Shown here one piece after another: positions 5,490 through 64,000 of a stretch of 64,000 nt of DNA. The notes under the pieces were generated by a model, which saw nothing but the letters and a program-made list of their open reading frames with translations, was not told where the DNA came from and did not search any database. Made by a program: the position numbers and the translations under genes. Location: assembly GCA_001774685.1 (NCBI GenBank), contig MFAS01000001.1, positions 961,252 to 1,025,251 of the forward strand, written 5' to 3'. The DNA comes from Candidatus Collierbacteria bacterium RIFOXYD2_FULL_45_13 (GTDB lineage: Bacteria; Patescibacteriota; Microgenomatia; UBA1400; MFAQ01). The stretch's first letter is position 1. Each line of letters opens with the position of its first letter.

Positions 5490-6278
5490 ATGTTCGAATG
5501 CCGCTATTGTGGCAACGTGTTCGAAAAGCTGACCGATGTCGGGGCCTGTCCCGCCTGTGGCGGACCCAAGCCAAAATGTCTTCAGCCTGAGGTTCTCACC
5601 ATGATTGTGGATCGGTATGTTTACATGCCCGCCACTTCACGGTCTCCCGAGTACTACACTCCGCCTCAGCGGACCTTGAAGCAACAGGCTTATAGCACAC
5701 TGGGCTACAAACTCGTCGTTGGGTTTACGGCTCTCGCGGTGACTGCCTTTGTTGCCTGGTTCGCCTATCTCTGGTTCTTCTATGACTTAGGCGCCCCCAA
5801 AGATGCCGATCCCAGCTTCCGCGACTACATTCCTACTTCAGTTGCCTCGCCCACCACCTACGTCATCGAGAACCCGTGGTCGAATACGATCTGGCTATCC
5901 AGCTCGGAAGCACTGGCATTGCGTACCCAGGAGCAGGTGATTCATCTGGCCTACCTCAGCCGAGGTGAAGCCAAGTATACCAATCAAAGCGCCATCTTCG
6001 ACGCCAACAGTTGGTCGCGAACCACACCCCTGGGAGTTTCACAACTCTCCACTTCCGGTACCGGCGTGACGATCACGGTCAATGGGTCTGAGTATCATCT
6101 CAACATCCTTCAGCCGTTCGTCATCGCCAACCAACCCCAGACCATCTTCATTGTTGATCTCACCGGTCAAATCTGGTCTGTCGGCGTGGCCAGTGCCAAT
6201 TTGGTTGATCTGCAGACGGCCCAAAGCCGTTTGACCGTCACCATCACCCCCAACGGGGATCTCAGCCTCACCTATTAA
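5490..6278 (+). CDS. membrane protein: N-terminal zinc ribbon (CxxC..CxxC), one TM helix, extracytoplasmic beta-rich domain
   Basis: MFECRYCGNVFEKLTDVGACPACGG; hydrophobic helix LVVGFTALAVTAFVAWFAYLWFF; strong SD. Confidence 0.6.
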   Translation: MFECRYCGNVFEKLTDVGACPACGGPKPKCLQPEVLTMIVDRYVYMPATSRSPEYYTPPQRTLKQQAYSTLGYKLVVGFTALAVTAFVAWFAYLWFFYDLGAPKDADPSFRDYIPTSVASPTTYVIENPWSNTIWLSSSEALALRTQEQVIHLAYLSRGEAKYTNQSAIFDANSWSRTTPLGVSQLSTSGTGVTITVNGSEYHLNILQPFVIANQPQTIFIVDLTGQIWSVGVASANLVDLQTAQSRLTVTITPNGDLSLTY

Positions 6279-6292
6279 GAAGGAGAACCTAA

Positions 6293-13562: not shown

Positions 13563-13633
13563 GGGCCTGTAGTTAAACGGTAGAACATGGCATTCGCATT
13601 GCTAAGATGGGGGTTCAATTCCCCCCAGGTCCA
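13563..13633 (+). tRNA. tRNA-Ala (anticodon CGC)
   Basis: GGGCCTGTAGTTAAACGGTAGAACATGGCATTCGCATTGCTAAGATGGGGGTTCAATTCCCCCCAGGTCCA. G3:U70 in the acceptor stem. Anticodon loop UUCGCAU. T-loop TTCAATT. A73 discriminator; no encoded CCA. Confidence 0.75.
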
Positions 13634-43600: not shown

Positions 43601-46600
43601 TGGTGGTGGTGGTGGAGGCACTTACGGAGAAACAGCCCTCGATGACCTTTACTTCGGTTCTTCTGGTGGTGGTGGTGGCATGAATGAAATTGATCTAGAG
43701 GCTGGCGACGGAGGAGGTGATGGTGCGGGCATTGTTTTCATCGCCGCCAACACGATTAGTGTATCCGGCAATATTCAATCCAATGGTAGTGCAGGGACTG
43801 AAACTGGGGGTGCCAACGGCGGTGGAGGTGGAGGTGGTGCGGGAGGGTCCATCAAGTTGATCGGCAATGCTCTTAGTCTCGGCTCTTCTCTAGTCACTGC
43901 CACGGGTGGTAGTGGCAGTACTAACTCTGGCGGAGTAGCTGGAGGCAATGGAGGAACCGGCAGAATCGCAACATATTATGTTTCCTCTACTGCTGGGACT
44001 ACCGACCCTGGAGCCAACCTCGCAAGCGTGAGTGCTAATAACTATGCCATTTTTATCTCCGACGAGATTCCTACTCCAAATGCCACCAACTTGGACAAAC
44101 TCAGTTTCAGTTTTGACCAAAACCTTTACGGTCAGGTCCAGTTCCAAACCAGATCCGGCAAAAGTAACAACGCCACCGACGGCTCATGGGAAATATGGAA
44201 GCCAGTCGTAGTCAACACCAACATCAAGACTCTCAATGCCATGGACGCCACCGGAGATTGGTCGGTTACTAGTTTGAGTGCCGCCGCCGACGGTGTTCTA
44301 GCCCGGAATGTGGATGAGTTTGAGGACGAAGATATCACCAACGCGGCCAACAAAAGCGTCAAATTCGGTTCAGTTGGCTCCGCCAATGGGTATGCGGAAG
44401 ACACTATTTCGTCGACCGATCTTTCCAACTATGATCTGATTTCAGCTTGGATCTATGCGACTAGCTCCGGTAACATCGTCAAACTAGGTTTTGGAGAATC
44501 AGCTGGCAATGAACAAGAAGAAACCTTTACGGTTGACACTGCCAACACCTGGCAAAAAGTTTATTGGGACATCACCGATATTGATGAATCACTCCGCAAT
44601 GCAGTGACGAAACTTCGTGTCTCCATTCTCTCCACCAATACAACTGTATATGTCGACAGCCTCCAGGCAGAAAGACTAATGAATACGGCTTCGGGGTACG
44701 TCATTACCTCTACTCCCAACGAGTACCTCCAGTATCGGGCCATCTTGACCACCACCAATAGTGCTTTCCGACCCAAACTGTACAATATCAAAATTGATTG
44801 GAGTAATGGTTATAAAATTGAACAAACAACGGCGAACTCTGTCCGACTCTATAATTTTTCCGGGCAAACACAACAAATCCGACTAGACGCCATAGTCTTC
44901 GGAGCTGACTTGGCCGAATGGTATAGTGTCAACGATTCCAGCATAGAAGCCGGCGAACTAGTTGCCATCACTGGCGCCTTAGATGATTTTGGGGTTCCCT
45001 ATCTTAGAAAAACTAATCAAAAAAATGACCGCAACATCCTCGGTGTTATCTCCACCAAAGCCGGACAAACGCTTGGTGTCGAAGGAGAAAACCGCCGTCT
45101 TCTGGCACTAGCTGGCCGGGTTCCGGTCAAAATAGACCTCAGCAGTCCCAGTATAAAGGCGGGCGATTATCTTACCGCTTCCGACAAACCGGGTCTGGCC
45201 AAAAAAGCTCGTCCGGGAGAGATGACCATCGGCCGCGCTTTTGAGTCTTGGAACCGAGAGGCTCCTACCTCTACTGTTCTAACTATTGTTCAACAACCCT
45301 CAGAAACTCCGGAAGTTGATCTTTCTCAATCCGTTATTTCCATTGCCAAAGATACTTGGGAAGTCTGGAACCAGACAGCTAACATTGCCATCACTCGTCT
45401 GGCCTCTTTCTCCGAAGTAGTCACCGGTCGATTAACCGCCGGACTTACCACCACCAATCAATTACAAGTTGAGACCATCACCTCACTTGCCTCAGGCAGT
45501 GCCATTACCATAAATAGTCCTGTGATTATTCGATCCGGAATACTAGCAACCACCCTCTCCGCACAAACCATCAATTCCGATACACTAAATGTCAAAAACA
45601 TTACCACTGATTCAATTACCGCCAACACCATTATCGGATTGGATGCCAAGGTAGCCAGTCTCTCGGCCGGATGGAGTACCAAACTTTCCGAATCGGAAAT
45701 AGAAACTCTCACCGGTCAAATCGTGCTCCAATTAGCAAACTCCAGCCAACAGTTTTCCGAATTCACCCAAGCGACCGTCGCCAACTTCCAAGCCGGTGTT
45801 TCCGTAATCGGAGAACTCGTCACTGAAAACCTCACCGTTCGTACCAGGCTGATCACCCCCATCGCTGATATCGACCAACTAAAAGTGATTGATGCCACTA
45901 TCTCCGGCACTCTTTATGCCGACAACATTAAGGGAAAAACCGTCGACACTCTTAACCTTCAGCTCGACCTATTAAACGAAAAGTATTCAACCGCCTCAGC
46001 TATCTTAGCCGACCTCCAATCCAGATATTCCTCCTACGACTCTCTCCTCGGGAATCTTCAAACGGCCACCGACTCGGCAGATCCACTGGCTCTCTCTCCC
46101 CTAGCTACCGTTTCTGCCTCCTTCCCCTCCGATATGGCTTTAGAATCCCTGACTTCCCGCCTGATCTTTACCAATGACGTTCTGGCCAGCGGTTCTGTCC
46201 TAGCACAATCCTTTAGCTCGATCGATTCCGATCTTTATATCCAACCCACCGGCGATAAGCCCATCCACCTTCTCGCCAATCTTATGACCTTGTACCCCGA
46301 CGGCAAAGTAGCTATCAATGGAGATCTTCTTATCTCCGGCACTATCTTCGCCAATAGTTTAGACACACGAACGGCCACCGTCTCGGGATCGTTGGCTGTC
46401 GGACAAGGTAACTTTGGCCAGTTAACTACCGGCGGCTTGATCATCGCCTCCGACAATCCAGATCAGTCCTCGAGCATTTCCGCTCAAGTCAGTTCCAATA
46501 CCACCATTGGCACCGCCACCATCGCCACTGGATCTTCAGAAATTGTTATCGCCAACAACAAAGTTACCGATGACACCCTCATCTACATCACCCCGGTCTC

Positions 46601-46733
46601 CGATACTAGCAATCAAGTCCTCTTTGTCAAATCCAAACAATCCGGTGTTGGTTTCACTGTGGCGGTGCCAGGTAACTCTGATCAGATAAAACAAGAAATC
46701 TCTTTCAACTACTGGCTAGTCAAAACAAAGTAA
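37617..46733 (+). CDS. giant (3038 aa) membrane protein: two cytoplasmic integrase-type SAM-like core-binding domains, one TM helix, Gly-rich repetitive ectodomain
   Basis: Residues 1-110 and 150-260 each carry an F..FL...GLS..(S/T)IKNYLSD(V/L)(R/N)HF motif like XerC/D N-termini. TM helix LNVAHLVLATTAMAIFAYNQII. GGGGGG tracts and two diverged tandem units of about 2.2 kb. Confidence 0.8.
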   Translation: MVLPNQVELLKHFSSFLFEAGLSSVSIKNYLSDVRHFLSFSQSLPGVSMEQIFSKITEFLPPYLEAQQSTYTPKSTTNRRLASIRRFATFLSVKYDISDFFTQQNISNKSNQILSWPHINGSREPTQTRSAPIPTPDEDNNHLHVSSKTMSSDKILEQFKTSLEKEKKTHSTIKNYLSDLNHFFLWTANQTPFTTQNLLNILSESQLQAYITYLKLSHTSTSVLSRRQSSIKKLARFCLSEGYIPKNPFEIKQAPQKIAPLAWIERLSHKAKKPSKGPKNIFVLWYDRYNALSWTPYLNVAHLVLATTAMAIFAYNQIIGQTRPSAAATALTPPRRQLSFQGRLTDSSGTPITTSVNVVFKLFNQLAPPGTQLYTSGTCSITPDQSGIFNSLIGDGVCGSEIGSSVFTDNRDVFLEITIGAETLTPRQQIATVGYALNSETLQGYPASASATINTVPVVDNSGNITIAASSPSIVSTSGTFTVKGQSLALTTAANSGGDIVLQPDSIGSGQILAIGGTTTEDSLRVTNANLTGGTLISGYVGNNTATGRILSLTSGSTETDRFWVATDGRTGIFASDADTALIVNQTSTGNLISASVSGSPVFTVTNGGNVDITGQYLINGTPIGSGSNWQLTSGSLTPLQITNSINIGAIATASALVHLAGTSGENSWINTGNFGIGTTNPSEKLNVSGNVKLTGNLLATTDNTQDLGDSTNSWSRLYLYTGINDKDGTEVISTLNKRLTGGSAWNIVEGARLGDINAITAGYKLDVVGNATASGNISLGGQLQVGRFAVAPTSLGSGSMYFNTTTTTGNSNPNTETPGTTGSLFVYGVDNAYHRLAMDMTQYSSNSANIANQSYIEVAHNQNTNDISLTAWVYNSATTLWQKINDYLAKSVTHDLDNEFNPPFTQKMKTSTVAIDYNENDLGNGADGAASISTDRNLNTTNINNNCTTDGGDAVNYSVTALTSTTATLESTPGAGCLEAGDEILLINLQGGTAAYSNVGNYETLRVSSVSTNVVTFTAAKTKFYGAGASDDTSIGLSAGNQIVMLQRVPNYTDVTISTAGTDLIVDDWVVPGGVANNGAGEGGVMFFRASGTVTVNSGTTINTNGKGYILGTAQTSSTVAADGGEAFCNTDGGGDAGIDNGAGSTGNCGGGGGGGAASGGAGSGSASLGGGGGAGGESTGTTANAGGGGGGGYGSAGNGGSSTSAAGSNGGTNSSGNGGAAGANHGGGGGGGGTYGDTTLADLYFGSSGGGGGMNETDGDAGGNGGDGGGIVYIAANTITVSSTGVIQANGTAGSAGTGDGGGGGGGAGGSVKLVGNTLTLGTSLVTASGGAAGGSGSGVGGGAGGDGRIASYYATSITGTTSPTKNDYTLSYNTYAVYVSEEINTPSATSFGNLSWTETLPASTNIQFQTRSGNTPDSTDGTWETWKPSTVTTNYVDLQTMNTHTDWTGTNATVADGDITRNVDYYEDEDEFTADNLTKITSTAAGGYAEDTISSTDISTHEYISAWVYSVGGGNVLTLGFGEAAATEQTETVTVDAGSTWQKVYWDISDVTGTARNAVTKLRITLTTNSNTVYVDNIKAEKTLLTTPAGSAITSTANNYIQYRAILTTTNTANQPYFSGVQLAYTNPVSTYTIDANRIRQLNNVDYYTSGRLQVTESELDNYKSIHTETALTSITQNAALDPGTGADGAITVTTDTSINTTSLISGRSCADGGDAVNYNVTSLTSTTAVLESTPSTGCLAVGDEVLLINLQGGSSATSNVGNYETLRVSSVVGATVTFTTAKTKFYGANEGDDTSIGISAGSQIVMLQRVPNYTNVTISGSGIDFYPDDWATPDGGVTSGPGEGGVMFFRASGTVTVGSNATIHANGKGYILGSGQTSSTATSDGGEAFCNADGGGDGGIDDAAGSTGNCGGGGGGGAASGGAGSGSASLGGGGGGGGEATVTTANGGGGGGGGYGTAGNGGNSSTAGGDGSNGGTNSSGNGGAAGTQHGGGGGGGGTYGETALDDLYFGSSGGGGGMNEIDLEAGDGGGDGAGIVFIAANTISVSGNIQSNGSAGTETGGANGGGGGGGAGGSIKLIGNALSLGSSLVTATGGSGSTNSGGVAGGNGGTGRIATYYVSSTAGTTDPGANLASVSANNYAIFISDEIPTPNATNLDKLSFSFDQNLYGQVQFQTRSGKSNNATDGSWEIWKPVVVNTNIKTLNAMDATGDWSVTSLSAAADGVLARNVDEFEDEDITNAANKSVKFGSVGSANGYAEDTISSTDLSNYDLISAWIYATSSGNIVKLGFGESAGNEQEETFTVDTANTWQKVYWDITDIDESLRNAVTKLRVSILSTNTTVYVDSLQAERLMNTASGYVITSTPNEYLQYRAILTTTNSAFRPKLYNIKIDWSNGYKIEQTTANSVRLYNFSGQTQQIRLDAIVFGADLAEWYSVNDSSIEAGELVAITGALDDFGVPYLRKTNQKNDRNILGVISTKAGQTLGVEGENRRLLALAGRVPVKIDLSSPSIKAGDYLTASDKPGLAKKARPGEMTIGRAFESWNREAPTSTVLTIVQQPSETPEVDLSQSVISIAKDTWEVWNQTANIAITRLASFSEVVTGRLTAGLTTTNQLQVETITSLASGSAITINSPVIIRSGILATTLSAQTINSDTLNVKNITTDSITANTIIGLDAKVASLSAGWSTKLSESEIETLTGQIVLQLANSSQQFSEFTQATVANFQAGVSVIGELVTENLTVRTRLITPIADIDQLKVIDATISGTLYADNIKGKTVDTLNLQLDLLNEKYSTASAILADLQSRYSSYDSLLGNLQTATDSADPLALSPLATVSASFPSDMALESLTSRLIFTNDVLASGSVLAQSFSSIDSDLYIQPTGDKPIHLLANLMTLYPDGKVAINGDLLISGTIFANSLDTRTATVSGSLAVGQGNFGQLTTGGLIIASDNPDQSSSISAQVSSNTTIGTATIATGSSEIVIANNKVTDDTLIYITPVSDTSNQVLFVKSKQSGVGFTVAVPGNSDQIKQEISFNYWLVKTK
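40370..42560 (+). repeat. internal tandem unit 1 of the giant ORF (about 2.2 kb, diverged; approximate bounds)
   Basis: DGGDAVNYSVTALTSTTATLESTPGAGCLEAGDEILLINLQGG...VMLQRVPNYTDVTIS...GGGGGG blocks...AILTTTNTANQPYF is recapitulated at 42660..44830. Confidence 0.5.
42660..44830 (+). repeat. internal tandem unit 2 of the giant ORF (approximate bounds)
   Basis: DGGDAVNYNVTSLTSTTAVLESTPSTGCLAVGDEVLLINLQGG...VMLQRVPNYTNVTIS...GGGGGG blocks...AILTTTNSAFRPKL. Confidence 0.5.
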
Positions 46734-53451: not shown

Positions 53452-53934
53452 ATGAAGCAATCGTATCTGAACGTCGGCTTGACAGTCTTTGGCTTCACCG
53501 TTCTGACCTTGGTCATCAGCGTCCTTCTGGGTACCTCCCCCGTTACCATCCTGGCTTTTGCCGGCAACTTGGTGGTTTATTTCATTTTCTTCTTTGGCTT
53601 TCAGATTGTCCTGCCTCCACTTATTGCCTACTTTGCCCGGAAGTACGGGATCACCCGGCTCGACAACAAGTTTGGCCAAAACTACCGTGAACAGATTCCC
53701 AACTGGATTCACTGGCTTCTTGCCATTACCTTCGGTTTGCTTATTGGACTCGCCTGGATGAAACTCACCCCTCTCATCGCCTTCATCCCCTCCTTGAGTG
53801 TCTGGCCTATTGAGTTTTTGCGCTGGACGGCGAGCTTTGAGCGGATCAATTATTGGGTGTCTGTCTGGCCCGCGATATCTTTCGCGGTCTCCTACCTAGT
53901 CACCCATACGGATATATCCAACCGAGAAAACTGA
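53452..53934 (+). CDS. four-TM membrane protein (160 aa), hypothetical
   Basis: TAATAGGAG Shine-Dalgarno; hydrophobic helices; terminator follows. Confidence 0.55.
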   Translation: MKQSYLNVGLTVFGFTVLTLVISVLLGTSPVTILAFAGNLVVYFIFFFGFQIVLPPLIAYFARKYGITRLDNKFGQNYREQIPNWIHWLLAITFGLLIGLAWMKLTPLIAFIPSLSVWPIEFLRWTASFERINYWVSVWPAISFAVSYLVTHTDISNREN

Positions 53935-55114: not shown

Positions 55115-55182
55115 GTACGCCTCCAGATATCAAGATGTGCCTATTATAACACATATAGGATAATCTACGCACCTTTTCGCCA

Positions 55183-55209
55183 ATAAAATCCCCCGCCGGT
55201 TGGCGGGGG
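55183..55209 (-). terminator. terminator element aataaaatcccccgccGGTTggcggggg (copy 1 of a repeated element)
   Basis: 8-bp GC stem with a T-run on the minus strand, downstream of 55225..55449. Near-identical to 57763..57789. Confidence 0.55.
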
Positions 55210-55224
55210 TGGTATTAGCGAAAA

Positions 55225-55449
55225 CTACGCTTCTTCGACGGCGTCGATGTCGTCAGCGTGCAGACGGTAGTTTGTACCTTCTTCATTGCTGAAGACGAAT
55301 CCATCTTCGTTCGCCTCGACAAAGGTCAGCACCGTCTCCGCGTTCAGATCGATGTCGTTCTGAAGGACACAGTTCTGTCCATCGACGACACACGCGTCGA
55401 CTTCCCTCGTTAGGCGATATTTCACGTCTTTCTCAAATTTCGGTTCCAT
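55225..55449 (-). CDS. small acidic protein (74 aa), hypothetical
   Basis: ORF with its own terminator. Downstream of, and co-oriented with, the lipoprotein gene. Confidence 0.45.
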   Translation of the reverse strand: MEPKFEKDVKYRLTREVDACVVDGQNCVLQNDIDLNAETVLTFVEANEDGFVFSNEEGTNYRLHADDIDAVEEA

Positions 55450-55468: not shown

Positions 55469-56485
55469 TTACGGAGTGGCGGTCGGGACCAACTCGGTCG
55501 GGACGGAGGTGGGACTAGGAATAATGACCGCAGGCGGACCGTCATCGATGATTCCGCCCTGACAGACGTTACCAGAGAAGTTGAAGACGCACGTACTACC
55601 GGCGTTCGCGCATGCCTGAACCAGGTCCTGCAAGCCGAGCCAGCAGTAGGCATTCGGTCCGTAGAGCTCCTGGGCCACCTGCAAACGCTGTTGGCTGAGA
55701 GAGATCGAACCTTGGGTGCTCGAGTTCGACTGATCCGGATTTTTGATCACGTAATCGATCACGATCTCGATCGGAGCACAGTAAAACTCTCCTTCGCCCG
55801 GTTTCTTAGGATCGGGCCAACCAGAGGCATTGGCACCACAGAAGAAGTCGATATTGTTGTACCCCGTGGGGGCTCGAAGCTTTTCCTTGATGCTTTCTAC
55901 CATATACTGCTGGAGAATCGCGATTTGCGCCGTATCCCCGTTCTGCCAAATTGCGTCGGTCGTCAGGAACGCCCCTTCCCTTGCGGAACGGGCCATTGCC
56001 GGGCCAAAGGTCTCACCCAGCATGTCAAGCCACCCTTCGGTGGAGTTGTTAATCTCACCACCAGAGACATCACGATCACTGGCGGCACCAAACTTGTATT
56101 GGTATTTGAAGAAGGCCTTCATCGCCTCCTTATTCTGATTGAGCTGAAAATAGGAACTCACGGCGATGAGAATGTCAGTCCCTGTGGAAGTTTTCGCTTT
56201 CAACAGCTGGATTTCATCACCCACCGATATACCATTACTCACCTGACTACCGTCATTAATCAGATAATTCCGATCACCGCAGGGTACGTACTTAATGACG
56301 TGGTCTGTACTGGCTTGAGGGATCTCCTCCCCCGGATAGTAAACCTCATCCACGTCCGAATCGGGATAACCATCGCCGACTACGTAGGCACAGCTTGCCT
56401 CGCTTACTCCAGAATAAAAACAGCCGGTGAGCAGGAAACTGGCAATGACCAGCAACGACAACACAGTGAACAGTTTCTTCTTCAT
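55469..56485 (-). CDS. lipoprotein (338 aa), hypothetical
   Basis: MKKKLFTVLSLLVIASFLLTGC after a CAAGGAGAACC Shine-Dalgarno. Trimmed from track ORF 56545. Confidence 0.55.
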   Translation of the reverse strand: MKKKLFTVLSLLVIASFLLTGCFYSGVSEASCAYVVGDGYPDSDVDEVYYPGEEIPQASTDHVIKYVPCGDRNYLINDGSQVSNGISVGDEIQLLKAKTSTGTDILIAVSSYFQLNQNKEAMKAFFKYQYKFGAASDRDVSGGEINNSTEGWLDMLGETFGPAMARSAREGAFLTTDAIWQNGDTAQIAILQQYMVESIKEKLRAPTGYNNIDFFCGANASGWPDPKKPGEGEFYCAPIEIVIDYVIKNPDQSNSSTQGSISLSQQRLQVAQELYGPNAYCWLGLQDLVQACANAGSTCVFNFSGNVCQGGIIDDGPPAVIIPSPTSVPTELVPTATP

Positions 56486-56547
56486 CCTTGGTTCTCCTTG
56501 TGAAATGTTTTCAAAGTCCCGAACGGTATGTATTATACCGCACAAGC

Positions 56548-57594
56548 TTACTTATCATCATCCAAATACCCCAGCGTACTCACCATGGTGTTGCTGGAGT
56601 CATAAACGGAAGTCAGCAGTTCAACGGCATCAGGGTCATTCTTCTGAAGAGCGATGAACAGATCGTCATAGGTCAGTAACACTCCTTTGACGTCCGACAG
56701 AAGATCAGCCGACATATGGCGCCTGCCAGACTCATGCTTCTTCAAAGCCATGATCTGTCGATCCATGTTGGCTAACAGCACCGGGAACTTCTCTTCCGCA
56801 TAGCCCAAGTGCGTCTGTGAATTAGCCAAAATATCGACCAACTCATACGCCAACTGGATAGCTCTTTGAAGTTCTTTCCTCACTTTTCCGTCCGCAATGT
56901 CGTGGATCTTCTCTGAGATCACATCAATTTTGGACGTTAAAGGGGCAAAAGACTGCCTGCGTAAAACCCGTTTGGCATTTTTCTTAACATACACAGACAA
57001 CCAAATCACGGTCCCCAATACAAACACGGCCATGACCAACCATACCGGCCAGGAAATATCTTCGGCCTTTGGCAGCTCTACTGGCGGTCTCGGTGTCGGG
57101 ACTGCCGTAGGCACCGGAGTTGGGGTCGGTAGCGGATTCTCACTCAGCCACGAGTGAACGTTCTGAGTGAATGTAATCAGGGCAGTAACGGGATCGTTGG
57201 ACACGCTACTGGCCCGTTGCATCTTGTCCCAGGCCACGCCTTCGGGCAAGAGGACACTGTACCCAATTACTTCCCGTCCGACAGCTAGTCCGACAGTCTT
57301 CTGATTACCAAGGCCCTCGGAAATGCTTCGAGCGATGGTATACAGGTCTGTGCCGGCCAGAGCTTCCGGGGGGAGCATCACCAGGACAATATTGTCACCC
57401 GGCGTGAGAAATTTGCCAAGTTGACTTTGTGTATCATATTCGGTTCCTGTGGCGCCAGGCGCCACATAGACGTTTGAGGTCTTTAGGGCCTCGATGGCGT
57501 CTGATACATAGTCACCCGCGGATACATTTCCACGAGGAACCAAGAACGAAAGCGCCACAGCGAACAATAGCAACACTTTCAACGGCTGCTTCAT
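56548..57594 (-). CDS. membrane protein: signal peptide, TPM-like ectodomain, Pro linker, TM helix, cytoplasmic coiled-coil
   Basis: KTVGLAVGREVIGYSVLLPEGVAWDKM resembles the TPM (TLP18.3/MOLO-1) core. PLPTPTPVPTAVPTPRPP linker; helix WPVWLVMAVFVLGTVIWLSVYV. Confidence 0.45.
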   Translation of the reverse strand: MKQPLKVLLLFAVALSFLVPRGNVSAGDYVSDAIEALKTSNVYVAPGATGTEYDTQSQLGKFLTPGDNIVLVMLPPEALAGTDLYTIARSISEGLGNQKTVGLAVGREVIGYSVLLPEGVAWDKMQRASSVSNDPVTALITFTQNVHSWLSENPLPTPTPVPTAVPTPRPPVELPKAEDISWPVWLVMAVFVLGTVIWLSVYVKKNAKRVLRRQSFAPLTSKIDVISEKIHDIADGKVRKELQRAIQLAYELVDILANSQTHLGYAEEKFPVLLANMDRQIMALKKHESGRRHMSADLLSDVKGVLLTYDDLFIALQKNDPDAVELLTSVYDSSNTMVSTLGYLDDDK

Positions 57595-57762
57595 CGTACC
57601 TCCTATAAGTTAATTTTCAACGTTCTTACTAACAGACGATATTTTACCATTTAACCATCGTTTGTCAATGGTTATGGGTCATTTTTGCCCCGCCTGCAAT
57701 AGCTGCGCTCTAGCGTCTGCGGGCAGGTTGAGTATTCGAAATCCCGAGTATCTCGAGGGGCA

Positions 57763-57789
57763 ATAAAATCCCCCGCCAGTTGGCGGGGG
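57763..57789 (-). terminator. terminator element aataaaatcccccgccAGTTggcggggg (copy 2)
   Basis: Downstream of the minus-strand TelA-like gene; one loop substitution relative to copy 1. Confidence 0.55.
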
Positions 57790-57813
57790 AAATACGGAAA
57801 TTCTGTTTGAAAC

Positions 57814-59127
57814 TTACGCGTTGCCGAGATCGGCAACCAGTTGGCCGAGGCGCGCCTCGGTCTCGATCTGCATCGCTTCGACCTTGTCCATGTTGTCGCG
57901 GGTATTCTGGATACCGCGGCTGGCAGCAGCGATGGTCGCTTCCAGGGAGCGCATGGTGGTCTGAACATCGAGCAGAGCGCTGTTGGCAGCCTTCTGGAGG
58001 GCATCCGCGGCAACGCCGACGGCGCCCGAAGCATTTGCTTCGGCATGGCGCACGTCCTGGCTCGCCTTGGCAATACGGAGGGCGGAGACGATGTCGCACA
58101 CCAGTCCGAGCTGAAGACCAAGGGCGGCGATCAGGTTGGTGCGGGTGAACTCGACATCCGCGCGGATGACAGCCACCGAAGCGTGAATGGTGCCGATGAT
58201 GGAGTAGAGACCGATCTCTTTCACCGCGAAGGCTTTGAGATCAATCAGGCGCTTGATCAAGATCTGCAAAAAGGTCTGTTGATCTTTCACCAGTTCGTTG
58301 ATCGGTCCGCGGTCCGCTCCAACGGCATTCTTGAGTTCTTTTTCAAGACGCTTCAGCTCAACACGAGCGTCGGCGATGATGGATTCGAGCGCCAGGCCGT
58401 TGACACAGGTCTGAAGCAGATCCTTTTTCACCATATCGCGGCGAGCGCGCAATGAGGCTGAAACGCGGTCAAGCATGACCGACTTCTGGGCCAGATCGTT
58501 GCCGACATTGCCCAAACGGGTCTGATAGCTGACCACGCGGTTGAGAACTTTGGTGAACAGGCGCTTGAAGAGGAAATCAATCGCTGACGCGTTTTCGCTC
58601 CAGCTCTTGAGGATCTGTGTCGCTTTCTCTTCGATTTCCGCGGCCTTGACGTCATCATCCTTGCTGATACTTCCGGCAACGCCAGTGGCCTGATCGAGAG
58701 CCTTTGCGACCTCGAGCTTCGCCATACCAGTGGCCTTGGTTTCGGCACTGTTGATAAACATCTGGACGATTTTGTCCGGGATCGTACCGTAAGTGGCCGC
58801 AGAGTCGATATTGAGCTGAACTCCCGCACGTCTGGCAATCTCGCCCACAGCATATTTCTGCTCCTGGCGGTCAAACCAAACGTTGATAACGTTCTGAAGA
58901 TTGAAGCTGTTACCTTCGCTATTGGCGAGATCGTCGATCTGGCTTTCAACCATAGCAAGATCGGTGCTGACCGAATCATCTGCCTTGGCAAGCTCGTCTT
59001 TGACGATCACGGCCTTTCCTTGAGCGGCCTGTTCCACATAATCGGCACGCTGAACAGCCAAACTAGCACTCGATTTACCTTCAGGAACATTACCGAGGGG
59101 AGCCAAAAGAATTTGCATGTCAGTCAT
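57814..59127 (-). CDS. TelA-like (toxic anion resistance family) coiled-coil protein, about 62% GC
   Basis: 437-aa all-helical soluble protein. The segment FLFKRLFTKVLNRVVSYQTRLGNVGNDLAQKSVMLDRV resembles the TelA core. Family assignment is tentative. Confidence 0.45.
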   Translation of the reverse strand: MTDMQILLAPLGNVPEGKSSASLAVQRADYVEQAAQGKAVIVKDELAKADDSVSTDLAMVESQIDDLANSEGNSFNLQNVINVWFDRQEQKYAVGEIARRAGVQLNIDSAATYGTIPDKIVQMFINSAETKATGMAKLEVAKALDQATGVAGSISKDDDVKAAEIEEKATQILKSWSENASAIDFLFKRLFTKVLNRVVSYQTRLGNVGNDLAQKSVMLDRVSASLRARRDMVKKDLLQTCVNGLALESIIADARVELKRLEKELKNAVGADRGPINELVKDQQTFLQILIKRLIDLKAFAVKEIGLYSIIGTIHASVAVIRADVEFTRTNLIAALGLQLGLVCDIVSALRIAKASQDVRHAEANASGAVGVAADALQKAANSALLDVQTTMRSLEATIAAASRGIQNTRDNMDKVEAMQIETEARLGQLVADLGNA

Positions 59128-59227
59128 TTCGTTTCTCCTTGAGTACTTCGGATTTGTTTCAGGTGGCTTTCGCCACCTGTCTTACCTAAGAAAAAAAGAT
59201 CTCCTAAGGTATCCCCCTTTTCGAAAA

Positions 59228-60391
59228 CTACTTGGCGTAGTTATCGAGAACGTACCGTGTAGCCGAGGTCAGTTGCTCAAACGGAAAAGCGATTAATGAC
59301 CATGGCTCGTTCGAGGGAATAAAGTCCGCGAACTGAATCGGGGCAATACTTACCAGTCCCGATCCGCGCATGCCTGTGGTTTCGGAAACCGTCTGGAAGA
59401 ATTCGACATTGTTAGCAATGGCGTCCAGATAGTCCTGACCCTTCTTGCTGACGGCGAATAGTGTGAAAGTACTCGTCGCAGTCTTCTTCATGTACACGAG
59501 TACATTTCCCTTCTCTTTCATCAATTCTGCCTTGTCGGCATACTTGATTGCCCAGCTGGTATAGCAGGACTCGGAGAAGATCGAGATATGAACCGAGTCA
59601 GTTCGTTGGTTCAGCCAGTTATGACAAAAATCGAGAGAGCTGTCCAACACCTTGCCGCTGCGCTCGTAGAGAGCGATCAGCACTTTGGCATACTCAGGCG
59701 ACAAGGTTGTAACTTCCTTGCCACTGGGATCCGTAAACTTCATGAGCGCCTCGGAACCAATCATGTCCTGTCCGCCTTTGAAGTAGTAAGCGAGTAACAG
59801 GTCCGCGCTTGGGACACCCACTGTCGACTTGGGAAACCCAATGTTGACAATGTTATCGATGTTGATACCCAAATCTGTGAACTTCTTATTCTCCACGTCC
59901 GCCATGACCAGGGCAGTCATCTTGTCGGGGTCAATGAAGTAAGTCGTTCGACCGTCATGCACTTCCGTGTATACATACCCGGCTTCCATGAGGGGAGTCA
60001 AATCATCCTGATCGGGATTCGATTTGATTGCCAGAACGTAAGGAGATGTAGAGATTACCATCTCGCTGAACACTTGCTGGTTCGGGATCTTCCCCGCGGC
60101 AACCAGAGCTTTGACTTCATTGAGGCAGTTGAGGGTGCCGGCTTGAATCAAGTCGACATCTTCCCACACACCCTTTTCACTACAAGTGTTTCTTCCATCA
60201 ACAACAGTAAGGTCAAAACCCAAACCGTCGTTGAATTCGTCCATCCGCGTGTTGGCTTTCCCAAAGAACACGTCACCGCCACGAACATTGAGTTCCGTAC
60301 GTTGGGCGCCTTTCTGGGATAAATACAATACTCCGGACAAGATCATTGTCAGGATCACCACGACACTCACGATCAAAGTTTTTCGGTTCAT
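59228..60391 (-). CDS. membrane-anchored extracytoplasmic protein (387 aa), substrate-binding-protein-like
   Basis: N-terminal TM anchor MNRKTLIVSVVVILTMILSGVLYL then a soluble domain. 1-nt overlap with the upstream gene. Confidence 0.5.
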   Translation of the reverse strand: MNRKTLIVSVVVILTMILSGVLYLSQKGAQRTELNVRGGDVFFGKANTRMDEFNDGLGFDLTVVDGRNTCSEKGVWEDVDLIQAGTLNCLNEVKALVAAGKIPNQQVFSEMVISTSPYVLAIKSNPDQDDLTPLMEAGYVYTEVHDGRTTYFIDPDKMTALVMADVENKKFTDLGINIDNIVNIGFPKSTVGVPSADLLLAYYFKGGQDMIGSEALMKFTDPSGKEVTTLSPEYAKVLIALYERSGKVLDSSLDFCHNWLNQRTDSVHISIFSESCYTSWAIKYADKAELMKEKGNVLVYMKKTATSTFTLFAVSKKGQDYLDAIANNVEFFQTVSETTGMRGSGLVSIAPIQFADFIPSNEPWSLIAFPFEQLTSATRYVLDNYAK

Positions 60392-60987
60392 TATCTTCCT
60401 CCTTCGGGATCAATTCCAGCCGACTGCATGTCGGTTTCCAGCTCATACAAGCCGGTGAGATATGTATCGGTCGGGTCAATCCCATCTTTCTGATACTTCA
60501 GGATTAGGTCGTCGAAATGGAGAAGGATTCCACGAACTTTCTTCGCTTCAACCGTCTCCAGAGGGTACATGCCCGATTCGTGGCCAAGCCATCTTTTCAG
60601 AAGACCGGTCAAGTTTCGAAGCATCGGTAACACCTTCTCTTCGACTTTTCCCTGCACCGTTTTTTTGCTTTCAAATTCGTTGATGAGACCCTCAAGTGTT
60701 AGAAGAGCTTTTCCATCTTCTTCGACAATCTCCGAATCTCTCACCTTATTGAGCTGCAAGGTGGCGAACTTCAAAAGCTTTTTGGCTTCGGAGAACTTGG
60801 CGATTCTATTCAACTTTCTCGCCTGATCATCGGGAAGCCACACGAATAGCACGTACAGAGTGACGAACGTCCCGAAGCCGATGATGAACGCGTATTCAAT
60901 AGCCGCCAGCCACCACACCAGAAAAAATACCGGTAAGGTGAGCAGGAGCCAGAGCGGATTACCACTCGGTTTTTGTTCCATATTCAC
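60391..60987 (-). CDS. membrane protein (198 aa): two N-terminal TM helices plus cytoplasmic helical domain
   Basis: LWLLLTLPVFFLVWWLAAIEYAFIIGFGTFVTLYVLFVWL then a charged helical region. Confidence 0.5.
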   Translation of the reverse strand: MNMEQKPSGNPLWLLLTLPVFFLVWWLAAIEYAFIIGFGTFVTLYVLFVWLPDDQARKLNRIAKFSEAKKLLKFATLQLNKVRDSEIVEEDGKALLTLEGLINEFESKKTVQGKVEEKVLPMLRNLTGLLKRWLGHESGMYPLETVEAKKVRGILLHFDDLILKYQKDGIDPTDTYLTGLYELETDMQSAGIDPEGGR

Positions 60988-60989
60988 CT

Positions 60990-62768
60990 CTAGTTTCCTA
61001 AGATGGCTTTAAAGGCATCAATCAAGCCCTGATCATTGTCACCGTTGAAGGTGGTGCCGTTGAACTGAGCTGTGTAGTCCTTGTTGATTGACACACCATC
61101 CGTGCCAAAGGCGATGCCGATGACCGTGATGTTGGAGTGGCCAAAGGCCTTCCAGTTTTGATAGAAGTCCCCAGCCAGAATCGAATGATTCATGTTCTCA
61201 CCATCAGTCAAGATGACGATGATGTAATCAACTTCAGAATTGTAGTTCGCCTTGATTTGCTCGAGTAGCTTGGTGCCACAGTCGAACATTTCAGTGCCAT
61301 TGGACTGGAAACCATTCAAGTTCTCGTACAGCTTGGTTTCCACTACACTTCTGTTCCAGTCTTCAGGATGATTCTCATCCCACGGGCCAATGAGCGAATT
61401 GATGTACTGGCCAGCCGGTTGGGTGTCGGTTCCATAGGAGCTGACAACCAGATCGCTGGTCATGGTGCTGAAGAAATAGTACTCAAACACGTCGCTTGGG
61501 CCGGGGACGATACGGTTAGCCTGCAACCAAGCAGGATCAGTGATCTTAAGGACTGCGCGATCAAGCGCTTGAATTTTGTAGACCGAGAATTGGTTGCTGC
61601 CCACCATGATGTCCATCTTTGGATTCTGAAGCATCGAAGGCGATACATCGATACAAGCCTTGGTGATCTTCGTCCGTTTGTACATGTCACGGTAGACCTC
61701 CAATGCTCGATCTGCGACCGCACTGATGGGAGCGTTCACCACCTGAACCCCGAAGGGGTTAGAGGCGACACCCCACTCTGCTTTAAACGCCGAGTCATTG
61801 TGACCGACGAGTGCCGCAGAACCTTCAGTGAATCCGGCCAAGTTGATGGCATTCTGAGCTTTACCTTCCAGCGAGTTTTCGTCGATCAGATAGCTGATCA
61901 GAGCATTCGCCAGATCGTTTTTCGCCATCTCTCCGCCTAGGTCCCGGGTTCCAATGGCGACATTCGCCTGGGCCGTGGCCTCACGGAAATAGAAGAAATA
62001 GAATACAGGTTTTCCCTGTTTCATGAGTTTCGCGTTCAAACCATTGTCACCCAACAAATCACTGTCGAAGGTGACGACGGTGTTGTATCCGGTCACTTCG
62101 CCGCTTAACGCAGCGTTGTAGACCAGATCAAGCGCCTCATTTGAACCATTTGTGGATTTGATCTGGTCGTACACGGCCTTACCGCAAGGTTTCACACTGT
62201 CAAGTCTGACAATGTCCGCGGTCAAGTTCGCCGCATCCGTACCGGAACACCACGCCATGGTAGAGAAAAAGAACTCGCGCGACGCAGAGCCGGCCATCGC
62301 GTTACTTGCCACCACCGAAATCGCCCCGGATTTCATCAGGGAAACGAAGTCGGCATATGACAAAACATTACCTTGCAGAGCAAGGCTGTTGACGATGTCG
62401 GATCTAATTGCCACACCCACTTTGTGAGAGGCAATCAGCTTTACTTTCTGAAGGCCGTCGGCATCGAGGGAGTCGTCGACGATCAGCACGTCAGGCGCAC
62501 CGGACTGGCCGGTGACCATTTTCTCTCGCCATTCGCGCATTTCTCGATCATTGGCGACCTGAACAAACAGCTGAACACCTTTCTCTTTCGAGAACTGGTC
62601 CAGCAGCAGGTTGTCACCATCCCCATTGCCCGCAAACTGGTAGGCACTGTTCCCGACCACCACGAACAGGTTCGCAGCTGTCGGATCAGAGGTCGCTTGC
62701 GTTCGGCAAGCCATAGCCACCAATGCCAAGATCAGCAGAGCAAAAAACATACGATACATCTTCTTCAT
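60990..62768 (-). CDS. lipoprotein with N-terminal periplasmic-binding-protein-like domain and C-terminal von Willebrand factor A domain
   Basis: MKKMYRMFFALLILALVAMAC lipobox. C-terminal VDYIIVILTDGENMN...ITVIGIAFG is a vWA core/MIDAS-like region. Confidence 0.65.
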   Translation of the reverse strand: MKKMYRMFFALLILALVAMACRTQATSDPTAANLFVVVGNSAYQFAGNGDGDNLLLDQFSKEKGVQLFVQVANDREMREWREKMVTGQSGAPDVLIVDDSLDADGLQKVKLIASHKVGVAIRSDIVNSLALQGNVLSYADFVSLMKSGAISVVASNAMAGSASREFFFSTMAWCSGTDAANLTADIVRLDSVKPCGKAVYDQIKSTNGSNEALDLVYNAALSGEVTGYNTVVTFDSDLLGDNGLNAKLMKQGKPVFYFFYFREATAQANVAIGTRDLGGEMAKNDLANALISYLIDENSLEGKAQNAINLAGFTEGSAALVGHNDSAFKAEWGVASNPFGVQVVNAPISAVADRALEVYRDMYKRTKITKACIDVSPSMLQNPKMDIMVGSNQFSVYKIQALDRAVLKITDPAWLQANRIVPGPSDVFEYYFFSTMTSDLVVSSYGTDTQPAGQYINSLIGPWDENHPEDWNRSVVETKLYENLNGFQSNGTEMFDCGTKLLEQIKANYNSEVDYIIVILTDGENMNHSILAGDFYQNWKAFGHSNITVIGIAFGTDGVSINKDYTAQFNGTTFNGDNDQGLIDAFKAILGN

Positions 62769-62943
62769 GCCTCACTCCTTTTCAAACAGAATGTCAAAGA
62801 TCCCGCGCGAAGTGCGGGGAGTTGAATAACACCGAAGATCATACTGTATTATGGGGCAAATGTCAACCGCCAAGGTTGCGCATAGACGAACCAGGTGTTA
62901 TTATAGGGCGAGTTTATGCGAACCTTCACATAAGGAGTCATCC

Positions 62944-63234
62944 ATGACCAAACGTTCTCCCTCCGCCTTAGCTATCTTCAATCATGCGCTAATCGAAATG
63001 CTCCCCCGCACCGAATGGTTTCACTGCAGCGGGCAAAAAGATCTCCGAGTCGAGCCAAAATATGGCTCGGCCACCAAAGTCTTCCGCAGTCGGATTATGA
63101 ACCCCGCCTACGCGCTTGTTTACTACAGCGCCAAACGTGTCGTCATTCGCAACTTCGGACTACATCCTCATTATCTTGAGGAAATCCGGGTTGCTTGTGT
63201 CGCTTGTGCAGACCTTCCGGTTGAAGTCATTTAA
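62944..63234 (+). CDS. small hypothetical protein (96 aa)
   Basis: ATAAGGAGT Shine-Dalgarno then ATG; trimmed from track ORF 62851. Confidence 0.45.
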   Translation: MTKRSPSALAIFNHALIEMLPRTEWFHCSGQKDLRVEPKYGSATKVFRSRIMNPAYALVYYSAKRVVIRNFGLHPHYLEEIRVACVACADLPVEVI

Positions 63235-63250
63235 TCCAAGGAATGCACAG

Positions 63251-63529
63251 ATGGCAAATCCATACGTTAAAGATCGCGAAATGGCGGACAAGCTCAAGAC
63301 AGCTCTCCCCGCTTGGTCAGTTTCTACGTTTGCGCATGGAAATGGCCAGCACGGAGTTTCGTTATTCGTGCCTGATGGTGCAGTTCACCGAGTCCTCGCC
63401 TCCATTGGAGATACTGTCCAGCTCACTAACCGTGGCTGTACCGAGTCCGAAGTCGAGCAAGTCATAGTGGCCGTAACCGCCAACACTAATCTCGAAATCG
63501 AACTCGTCGCACCCGCAGCTGTACTCTAG
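63251..63529 (+). CDS. small hypothetical protein (92 aa)
   Basis: AAGGAA Shine-Dalgarno then ATG (MANPYVKDREMADKL...); followed by a terminator. Confidence 0.45.
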   Translation: MANPYVKDREMADKLKTALPAWSVSTFAHGNGQHGVSLFVPDGAVHRVLASIGDTVQLTNRGCTESEVEQVIVAVTANTNLEIELVAPAAVL

Positions 63530-63540
63530 CTTCATTACCA

Positions 63541-63570
63541 AACCGCCCTCTTTCGAGGGCGGTTTTTCAA
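63541..63570 (+). terminator. Rho-independent terminator aaccgccctc-tttc-gagggcggtt plus T-run
   Basis: Perfect hairpin after the stop at 63529. Confidence 0.55.
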
Positions 63571-63620
63571 TATCTATTCTGCATCGAACAACGAATAACT
63601 TCGCACTAACAACTTCCCTA

Positions 63621-64000
63621 TCACCCCCCATCCTTCAGACTCGCCAAAAATTCCTTGTTGCTCTTAGTTCGTGCCAATCTCCCGATGAGAACCTCAGTTC
63701 TTTCATTGTCACCGAGCATATCGAGCATTCGGCGCATGAGGATGATACTTTGGTACTCCATCGAGTCAAAAAGCAAGTCGTCTCTACGCGTGCCGGATCT
63801 CATTACATCAATAGCTGGGTATATTCTCCGTTCGGCCAAGCGCCGATCCAGATGCAGCTCCATGTTGCCGGTACCCTTAAACTCTTCATAAACGAGGTCG
63901 TCCATCCTACTTCCGGTATCGGTCAAAGCTGTTCCGATAATCGTTAGGCTTCCTCCGCCCTCAATTTTGCGGGCAGCTCCAAAAAACTTCTTGGGAGGAT
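63621..64000 (-). CDS. rho: transcription termination factor Rho, C-terminal part (5' end beyond window)
   Basis: Translation ...[69 protein letters not shown] matches the Rho RecA-like domain C-terminus. Confidence 0.9.

Follow-up and report, generated by a model that had tools for sequence, protein, structure and literature searches.

A divergent TelA-like gene closing a conserved envelope operon in a Candidatus Collierbacteria genome

The stretch of DNA analysed here (the window) comprises 64,000 nucleotides of contig MFAS01000001.1 (positions 961,252 to 1,025,251 of the forward strand, assembly GCA_001774685.1) from Candidatus Collierbacteria bacterium RIFOXYD2_FULL_45_13. The gene under study, which we call the TelA-like gene, lies on its minus strand at 57814..59127. 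Bacteria of the candidate phyla radiation (CPR) have minimal genomes, depend on contact with host cells, and possess an envelope biology that is almost wholly unannotated. A first-pass annotation made from the sequence alone had proposed an open reading frame (ORF) of 437 amino acids (aa) at this place, and the ORF is real: its ATG is at 59127, its stop codon is at 57814, and a Shine-Dalgarno sequence (AAGGAG) lies 7 nt 5' of the ATG. The predicted product is a cytoplasmic, all-helical protein with three very long helices in the AlphaFold2 (AF2) model. We consider it probable that the gene is a divergent, vertically inherited core gene of the TelA superfamily that forms the last cistron of a conserved CPR envelope operon, and that selection on codon choice accounts for its excess of GC.

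The sense frame differs from that of a homologous locus, L006 (the loci compared are numbered with the prefix L), at 65, 39 and 197 sites in codon positions 1, 2 and 3, respectively, and by this codon-position pattern it is under purifying selection. Five alternative-frame ORFs of 122-204 aa overlap the gene, three in other frames of the same strand (57672-58121, 57710-58099 and 58428-58991) and two antisense to it (57780-58148 and 57841-58455). The suggestion that the open antisense frames are a by-product of composition was borne out. The extra ORFs arise as by-products because TTA, CTA and TCA codons are avoided in the TelA-like gene, and the codon-register antisense frame is also open in several orthologues, with up to 419 codons in L006.

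Two transcription units can be delimited on the minus strand by promoter-like and terminator-like sites. The first of them, Unit 1, starts from a sigma-70-like promoter at 62838..62866 (TTGACA-17-TATGAT, 11/12 consensus), and equivalent TTGACA promoters lie upstream in L006, L022 and L033. A hairpin predicted by RNAfold (CCCGC-ACUUCGC-GCGGG, 62802..62818) follows in the 5' untranslated region (5' UTR), with hairpins at the matching place in L012, L017 and L021. The unit encodes, in order, a vWA lipoprotein, an XpaC-like protein, a membrane-anchored protein and the TelA-like protein, and it ends at a terminator, T1. The vWA lipoprotein (592 aa, 60990..62768) has an N-terminal region resembling solute-binding proteins (SBP) and a putative C-terminal vWA domain. 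A lipobox (LVAMAC) and MIDAS-like motifs (DVSPS and TDGEN) can be read in its translation. The protein itself has no Pfam match; distant orthologues with about 20% identity pass the vWA thresholds (VWA_2, 32.8 bits, cutoff 27; VWA, 25.3 bits, cutoff 23.8) and match SBP_bac_11. The XpaC-like protein (198 aa, 60391..60987) is predicted to have two N-terminal transmembrane helices (hydrophobic within residues 10-53) and a cytoplasmic helical domain. The 387-aa protein (59228..60391) is predicted to carry an N-terminal membrane anchor (hydrophobic residues 3-28) and an extracytoplasmic domain. No family matches were found for it in the curated libraries, and it is homologous to 416-421-aa proteins encoded at the same position elsewhere (hhalign 97%). 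Kinship of this protein with the SBP-like half of the vWA lipoprotein was considered and rejected (hhalign 0.7%). Upstream of the operon, 63621-63926 on the minus strand encodes the C-terminal part of transcription termination factor Rho, recognised by a sequence motif, and rho is also the upstream neighbour in L033.

Unit 2 starts from a TG-extended promoter at 57641..57668 (TTGACA-16-TAAAAT, 11/12 match), encodes proteins of 348, 358 and 74 aa in this order, all on the minus strand, and ends at a second terminator, T2. The 348-aa protein (56548..57594) is predicted to consist of a signal peptide, an ectodomain, one transmembrane helix and a cytoplasmic domain (hydrophobic residues 1-26 and 179-205), and its cytoplasmic domain is homologous to that of the 198-aa family (hhalign 99.6%). 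The 358-aa lipoprotein ORF (55469..56545) has a likely internal start (MKKK..) and the lipobox LTGC, and is syntenic in L011, L012, L017, L019, L023 and L033. The last gene (55225..55449) encodes a 74-aa acidic protein, with syntenic genes for 74-79-aa proteins in L012, L017, L019, L023 and L033. Phage families were matched by the 348-aa ectodomain (phrog_33784, 'membrane protein', E 1.8e-5) and by the 358-aa lipoprotein (phrog_31970, E 4e-22); relatives of both are therefore carried by phages. The idea that the 358-aa lipoprotein is a divergent SPFH/Band_7 protein was discarded (hhalign 0%). SPFH/Band_7 genes were seen beside a canonical plasmid TelA of Jeotgalibacillus (L005, 5474-6319) and, separated from the TelA-like cluster by a few genes, in MAGs (metagenome-assembled genomes) labelled 'Anaerolineales' (L009, 12734-13849; L008, 9965-10993), which hints at a recurrent association of TelA with SPFH proteins.

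The TelA-like protein has a match of 100% identity in Candidatus Collierbacteria RIFOXYB2_FULL_46_14, where it is called a hypothetical protein. Its family comprises about 29 homologue clusters, nearly all of 432-445 aa and none of them annotated. In the species-level genome collection, members of the family come from Collierbacteria, from WWE3 and from MAGs that carry the labels Anaerolineales or Pseudomonadales. An exhaustive search of 1.84e9 proteins with the hidden Markov model (HMM) of the family yielded 16 matches, 12 of them at E <= 1e-30. The weakest, P0043 (E 1.7e-4), is a true TelA (PF05816, 51.7 bits, cutoff 30). Profile-profile alignment with hhalign related the family both to P0043 (92%, E 6.5e-7, 268 columns) and to an alignment of 24 diverse TelA sequences (91%, E 1.1e-6, 225 columns). 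In the latter alignment the SAAxYG of the family is paired with QYG of TelA, and KRLxDLKAFA with KKxHDLKLS, so that the family-invariant residues Y113/G114 and R293/D296/K298 align to the YG and (K/R)xxDLK motifs of TelA. Reversed and 20 column-shuffled profiles used as controls scored <= 22 with a probability below 1%; coiled-coil composition is therefore not responsible for the TelA signal. Structural comparison with Foldseek against the predicted viral structures of BFVD pointed the same way: the sole significant match among 455 candidates is an annotated phage TelA (E 2.6e-5, probability 1.00, template-modelling scores 0.46/0.52, 409 columns), and another 'tellurite resistance protein' follows further down the match list.

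Several results weigh against this assignment. The Pfam and NCBIfam TelA models are not matched by the protein at E <= 0.1, and PF05816 is not among the first 25 of the 46 families matched at E <= 10 by 26 relatives. The PLWK motif of TelA is not conserved, its place being taken by an invariant hydrophobic NLIAxLGLQLG. The AF2 model is of moderate confidence (mean predicted local distance difference test score 62, below 50 for residues 117-184), and fold matches among long helical bundles are error-prone. Sequence searches of the PDB with the protein and with the profile returned nothing significant, and Foldseek against the PDB gave non-specific coiled-coil, BAR, SMC and chemoreceptor matches, none at E <= 0.001. 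We found no solved TelA structure that could serve as an experimental reference for the fold, and PADLOC and PHROGs contained nothing meaningful for the protein.

Such negatives, together with stray weak matches to many coiled-coil families, among them RNase_Y_N, Fib_alpha and DASH_Duo1, are what would be expected of a lineage-specific coiled-coil protein unrelated to TelA, whose apparent kinship arises from helical-repeat composition. We consider this explanation quite unlikely. The signal collapses in the composition-preserving controls, the alignment is collinear over 225-268 columns and pairs the two most conserved TelA motifs, TelA alone stands out significantly in BFVD, and an XpaC-like partner encoded upstream fits the canonical gene pair. 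A second alternative, a membrane-remodelling protein of the PspA/IM30/ESCRT-III type, would agree with the long-helix, coiled-coil-like architecture and with a gene context of the envelope-stress type. Under the conditions that gave 92% for the single TelA, hhalign against E. coli PspA gave 0.2% (score 14.5), PF04012 was matched neither by the protein nor by its 26 relatives (among the first 25 of the 46 families they matched), and PspA/Vipp1 chains were absent from the PDB sequence and fold matches. A PspA/IM30 identity, which the first-pass annotation had recommended checking, is excluded on these grounds, and we give a relationship of this type hardly any credence.

From profile and predicted-structure comparison we conclude that these proteins form a new branch of the TelA superfamily, deeply divergent and outside the family as it is now modelled. 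Of the original TelA assignment, the remote homology thus stood and membership in the family did not, since the protein falls below every curated TelA model. Like the toxic-anion-resistance family TelA/KlaB/YaaN (PF05816), the family is all-helical, in the range of about 360-440 aa, cytoplasmic by prediction, and has residues that align to the YG and (K/R)xxDLK motifs, with an XpaC-like two-transmembrane protein encoded upstream in the same operon. It differs in being some 40-50 aa longer, in its tiny size (16 representatives in 1.84e9 proteins), in its occurrence in CPR-type MAGs, in the 387-aa gene standing between the XpaC-like and TelA-like genes of the window, and in having no known tellurite or antimicrobial-peptide phenotype. 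The protein has a single conserved hydrophobic segment, residues 331-353, in which N331, L332, L336, G337, L340, G341 and D345 are invariant; this segment could be a surface facing the membrane or mediating oligomerisation.

XpaC (PF10112) is encoded directly upstream of telA in 3/3 canonical TelA loci that we examined, and the 198-aa protein has the corresponding architecture and position (about 200 aa, N-terminal transmembrane segment, helical cytoplasmic domain, gene upstream of telA). A gene of the 198-aa type lies upstream of the TelA-like gene in the window, L006, L008-L010, L012, L017 and L021-L023. The protein itself has no Pfam match. Three of its five orthologues rank PF10112 among their top matches, all below threshold (E 3e-4, 1e-3 and 0.058; best 21.3 bits against a cutoff of 29.8). 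On the opposing side, hhalign of the 198-aa family against three true XpaC proteins gave a score of 27 (shuffles <= 17) at a probability of only 7%. We describe the protein as XpaC-like by size, topology and position, its membership in the family being unproven. As in the xpaC-telA pairs of Bacillota (B. subtilis xpaC-yaaN, Listeria lmo1966-lmo1967 and E. faecium xpaC-telA), the gene for a two-transmembrane protein of about 200 aa precedes a TelA-type gene within a single transcription unit and in an envelope-related setting. The Collierbacteria operon differs from these pairs in that the XpaC kinship is only sub-threshold, in having a vWA lipoprotein and an ectodomain protein with a membrane anchor as additional members, and in a second XpaC-like domain, which the next operon encodes in fusion with an ectodomain protein. 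The combination of TelA-type and vWA proteins in one conserved neighbourhood also recalls the Ter stress-response systems (TerY/TerF with TelA, TerD and TerC). No TerB, TerC, TerD, phosphoribosyltransferase or HAD components occur in the Collierbacteria locus, and its vWA protein is an exported lipoprotein fused to an SBP-like domain, not a cytoplasmic TerY/TerF.

The gene arrangement, or parts of it, is kept in L006, L012, L017 and L021-L023, shuffled in L008-L010 and reduced in L011, L019 and L033. A protein with the 198-aa-type cytoplasmic domain is encoded no more than two genes from the TelA-like gene in every locus with enough flanking sequence. Between the window and L006, both from Collierbacteria, the cytoplasmic proteins are well conserved, the TelA-like protein being the most conserved of the cluster (84% identity) and the 198-aa protein reaching 71%. 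Over the same block (window 59228-62768, L006 5333-8887), the extracytoplasmic proteins retain only 36-39% (vWA lipoprotein) and 23-26% (387-aa protein) identity. This hypervariability of the predicted surface proteins suggests diversifying selection on their exposed parts. A metagenome scan found no further complete operon; L024 is 99.98% identical to L006.

The TelA-like gene had been described as having about 62% GC and as strikingly GC-rich relative to everything else in the window. Both statements turned out too strong. The ORF has 55.7% GC and the span 57670-59130, for which the figure had been given, 55.4%, compared with 48.3% for the window and 48-52% for the flanking genes. Values of 0.61-0.65 occur only in the last 300-375 nt or so, which encode an Ala-rich C-terminus and probably gave rise to the impression of 62%. 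Elsewhere in the window, two 1-kb windows equal or exceed the gene, with 0.569 at 41-42 kb and 0.559 at 43-44 kb, and the ORFs at 153-458 and 5490-6278 have a GC content of 0.55 each. The gene does rank first in GC among the 45 ORFs of the window (0.557, mean 0.486, z = 2.0), by a margin of 0.005. Its GC content at third codon positions (GC3), 0.662, lies within the range of the window, and three unrelated genes (5490-6278, 6293-8107 and 53452-53934) equal it at 0.66-0.67; the comparison of GC3 with that of other genes thus did not single it out.

We calculated the GC content expected for each gene from its amino-acid sequence and the pooled synonymous codon usage of the 44 other ORFs. The expected value for the TelA-like gene is 0.500 (rank 11/45); amino-acid composition therefore explains little. 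The synonymous excess is +0.059 in GC and +0.138 in GC3, the largest of the 45 ORFs, closely followed by the three unrelated genes (+0.128 to +0.135 in GC3), and the block at 51.5-62.8 kb has much of the same GC3 excess (+0.04 to +0.11; neighbouring genes +0.05 to +0.11). With composition z-scores of about 2, the gene tops a continuum in GC3. The excess is confined to C-ending codons: in fourfold boxes, C-ending codons make up 0.47 in the TelA-like gene versus 0.32 in other genes and G-ending codons 0.21 versus 0.21, and NNY codons end in C at 0.56 versus 0.49. The same C-only signature at third positions recurs in the orthologues of L006, L007 and L012. Orthologues also exceed the GC content of their own loci in L006 (0.547 versus 0.487), L007 (0.484 versus 0.424), L011 (0.471 versus 0.405) and L012 (0.532 versus 0.443).

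These data bear directly on the proposal that the gene was recently acquired from a donor of about 55-62% GC and has not yet ameliorated. Its top rank among the window ORFs in GC and in synonymous GC excess would agree with such a transfer, as would the related genes in Anaerolineales-labelled MAGs of about 50-52% GC. We nevertheless regard a recent transfer as very unlikely. The GC content is 55.7% and not 62%; in GC3, three unrelated genes reach the same level and the neighbours come close to it. The excess is found only at C3, whereas foreign GC-rich DNA should lift both G3 and C3. The orthologues with the same excess in four other genomes encode proteins 43-84% identical to that of the window, beyond the point at which amelioration is expected; because they are only this similar, synonymous sites have long been saturated, and an excess specific to C that persists past saturation is therefore held by selection and is not left over from a donor genome. 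With GC contents of 0.507-0.533, the 'Anaerolineales' copies fall below the gene of the window. Synteny and the ranking of relatives by identity are common to the neighbouring genes, the ranking being the same for the TelA-like and 198-aa proteins, and the closest relatives are Collierbacteria and other CPR bacteria with the same operon. Third positions differ from the closest other genome in 197/437 codons, which therefore excludes a recent shared transfer. No integrase, tRNA or direct-repeat boundary was found at the gene, and the sole match in an Rfam scan of the window was a tRNA at 13563-13633, with no known RNA family near the locus. In composition, in mobility genes or boundaries and in phylogenetic distribution, the locus does not have the features of a horizontally acquired island. 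A GC3 within the host range had been named in the first-pass annotation itself as a finding that would refute transfer.

The TelA-like gene is thus mildly raised in GC through codon choice and is not a recent import. An excess that is synonymous, specific to C-ending codons and recurrent in orthologues, in a gene encoding the most conserved protein of the cluster, indicates selection on codon choice, and unusual codon constraints, which had been offered as the alternative to transfer, are the best fit. Framed as a foreign GC-rich gene, the observation is an ordinary one, its composition signal having been overstated and being explained without transfer. Codon bias, conservation and a strong Shine-Dalgarno sequence together suggest that the gene is probably highly expressed. 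Against this, no ribosomal-protein genes lie in the window to define the optimal codons, and the other GC3-rich genes (5490-8107 and 53452-53934) have no informative annotation that would link GC3 to expression. These three genes, all on the plus strand and one of them encoding an N-terminal zinc-ribbon, may mark the highly expressed or codon-optimised set of the genome.

Vertical inheritance faces one further difficulty in the taxonomic labels. If the labels 'Anaerolineales' (three loci) and 'Pseudomonadales' (one) are correct, an ancient transfer of the whole cluster between phyla is possible. CPR-type operons were observed on contigs labelled 'uncultured Anaerolineales' (L008-L010) and 'uncultured Pseudomonadales' (L012/L001, CAYTOI010000004.1). 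The 'Pseudomonadales' label is probably wrong; we distrust it because that contig and the Collierbacteria-like L017 have in common not only the operon but also upstream genes for a CoA ligase and pyruvate:ferredoxin oxidoreductase.

The operon is bracketed by a pair of short complementary sequences. The 5'-UTR arm GACAUUCUGUUUGAAA (62780..62795, minus strand) abuts the AGGAG Shine-Dalgarno sequence of the first gene, and the 3'-UTR arm UUUCAAACAGAAUUUC (57797..57812, minus strand), an arm of the inverted repeat I5, begins 1 nt past the stop codon of the TelA-like gene. On the mRNA the two arms are complementary at 15/16 positions, a value reached in 0/200 shuffles. When all 2,116 pairings in the window of 45-nt gene-upstream with 30-nt gene-downstream regions were scanned, this pair scored best (15; mean 5.8 +/- 1.1; next best 12), and the neighbouring operons scored 6 and 7. 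Complementarity at the same positions was seen in L006 (12/13), L021 (13/14), L022 (14/15) and L017 (12/13), where the arms AAAAAUAUAGAU and AUCUAUAUUUUU are unrelated in sequence to those of the window yet complementary to each other. In L033 the arms match at 11/12 positions plus one G.U pair, despite the absence of three upstream genes. Across the six loci (the window, L006, L017, L021, L022 and L033), the arms are 12-16 nt long; predicted duplex energies are -12 to -17 kcal/mol. In L006, L021, L022 and L017, 11-18 nt separate the end of the 5' arm from the ATG, and the 3' arm begins 0-1 nt past the stop codon. Arm complementarity was not found in more distant or rearranged loci, nor in any control pairing. 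Covariation between the arms is modest, with two pairs changed on both sides and one G.U pair. In register, 82% of the arm cells are paired, versus <= 65% when the arms are slid against each other, and the covariation score was reached by 62/500 shuffles, with only six loci available, four of them with related arms.

This pattern suggests that the 5' UTR of the operon mRNA pairs with its 3' UTR, and we judge RNA pairing to be the best reading of the sequences. The same arms might instead act on DNA, either as inverted repeats for a site-specific inversion that uncouples the operon from its promoter or as two sites of one regulator. Inverted repeats around a gene block with the promoter outside correspond to the layout of some phase-variable inversions, recombination or a common binding protein would also make both arms co-vary, and the formal covariation is weak, as the shuffles indicate. 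Nonetheless, the orientation is the same in all seven assembled loci, which come from different samples, and recombinase genes were not found in or beside any of them. The arms are only 12-16 nt long and non-palindromic, those of L017 remain complementary despite their unrelated sequences, and the mismatch seen in L006 and in L033 reads as G.U, a pair, on the strand of the mRNA but as A.C on the other strand. The arms also coincide with translation landmarks, abutting the Shine-Dalgarno sequence in the window and lying 0-1 nt past the stop codon in every locus. We consider action at the DNA level, the main rival reading, unlikely.

Pairing between the ends of an mRNA has precedents in the 14-bp interaction of the 5' and 3' UTRs of B. 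subtilis hbs (PMC5737220) and in the 5'/3'-UTR pairing of S. aureus icaR (PMC3868564). As in these cases, a complementarity of 12-16 nt joins a 5' UTR next to the ribosome-binding site with a 3' UTR just upstream of the terminator, and the length and predicted stability of the arms (-12 to -17 kcal/mol) are similar to those of hbs. The known examples are short, monocistronic and experimentally proven, whereas the present case is purely comparative, spans up to 5 kb and four cistrons, has its 3' arm 0-1 nt past the stop codon and occurs in a CPR host. A more specific, tentative possibility is that the operon mRNA is closed by this conserved pairing and that translation feeds back on it. Ribosomes terminating on the TelA-like cistron would melt the UTR duplex, which would form in their absence, so that translation of the TelA-like protein could act on the whole transcript, on its stability or its initiation. 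If true, no long-range, polycistronic 5'/3'-UTR interaction would have been described in bacteria before, nor any post-transcriptional control element in CPR bacteria; the element would be tied to a CPR-specific branch of the TelA superfamily that had previously gone unrecognised. The operon-bracketing arms are a concrete, testable candidate for long-range end-to-end pairing of mRNA in bacteria.

What the encoded module might do can be approached from the better-studied pairs. In E. faecium, xpaC-telA affects daptomycin binding and the distribution of phospholipid microdomains, and the xpaC phenotype needs an intact telA (PMC6811118). For Listeria lmo1966-67, disruption of the telA homologue is stated to raise nisin susceptibility, in a passage citing Collins 2010 (PMC12791056). 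Comparative genomics has led to the proposal that TelA and vWA proteins form structures beneath the membrane, and sub-membrane or envelope-protective assemblies have been proposed for the Ter systems (PMC7824862). By analogy, the soluble helical TelA-like protein would most likely assemble at the inner face of the membrane and dock there on the helical domains that the 198-aa and 348-aa XpaC-like proteins have in the cytoplasm, which proteins in turn would link it to surface-exposed partners of the sensor or adhesin type (vWA domain, ectodomains and lipoproteins). Such a module could maintain or remodel membrane architecture under envelope stress, as proposed for XpaC/TelA in Bacillota. The assignment gives a superfamily, TelA, and a plausible part in envelope biology to a conserved cluster of 'hypothetical' genes that Collierbacteria share with related CPR bacteria. 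It also carries over to a distant lineage a partnership implicated in the tolerance of Gram-positive pathogens to daptomycin and nisin. The extracytoplasmic partners found there, a vWA lipoprotein and hypervariable ectodomain proteins, are new, and this may help to work out the function of TelA.

The TelA-like gene is preceded by a 100-nt leader (59128..59227, minus strand) with an invariant box GGGGATACC (59216..59208) and a hairpin CAGGUGGC-GAAA-GCCACCUG (59179..59160). The box, GGGGAYACC in general form, is also present in L006, L012 and L033. The leaders of the relatives lie at 8888-9000 (L006), 8843-8952 (L012), 1755-1842 (L033) and 7916-8000 (L017), and L006, L017 and L012 have a hairpin with another stem sequence in which pairing is kept (CGGAUA/UAUCCG in L012). 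RNAalifold found no consensus fold for the leader over all seven loci. The leader is possibly an internal processing, stabilising or attenuator element. In L033 (157-3147, compared with 57814-63926 of the window), the genes for the vWA, 198-aa and 387-aa proteins are lacking, and rho is followed directly by the TelA-like gene (78% identical). There the promoter, the 5' hairpin and the 5' arm are joined to the leader GGGGACACC; a three-gene block was therefore cleanly inserted or deleted between the 5' arm and the leader.

The terminator T1 (57761..57790, minus strand) begins 24 nt past the stop codon of the TelA-like gene and combines a 9-bp G/C stem and a 4-nt loop with a T-tail (TCCCCCGCCAACTGGCGGGGGA followed by TTTTATTG). 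Its recurrence some 2.5 kb away, seen already on first inspection, is real: T2 (55181..55209, minus strand) is identical at 28/29 positions and lies 2,580 bp off. The window holds no further copy, and by chance 0.02 would be expected. We rejected the idea that T1 and T2 form a conserved paired or mobile element. Orthologous loci have terminators after the TelA-like gene and after the 74-aa gene, with different stem sequences that are dissimilar to one another within each genome, and the exact T1 hairpin motif was absent from the 16 loci searched. The identity of T1 and T2 at 28/29 positions is thus peculiar to this genome, the two being instances of the usual C-run/G-run terminator of the lineage, perhaps after local homogenisation.

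Two further features of the window lie far from the operon. An ORF of 3,038 aa at 37617-46733 on the plus strand has nearly equal GC at the three codon positions (0.506/0.514/0.503), a composition odd for coding sequence; its only Pfam matches are phage-integrase SAM-like N-terminal domains at residues ~156-250, and its region contains the GC-richest 1-kb windows mentioned above. A protein of 2,275 aa encoded at 17158-23985 on the minus strand contains multiple Kelch beta-propeller repeats together with fibronectin type III domains, and from this domain content looks like a large surface protein.

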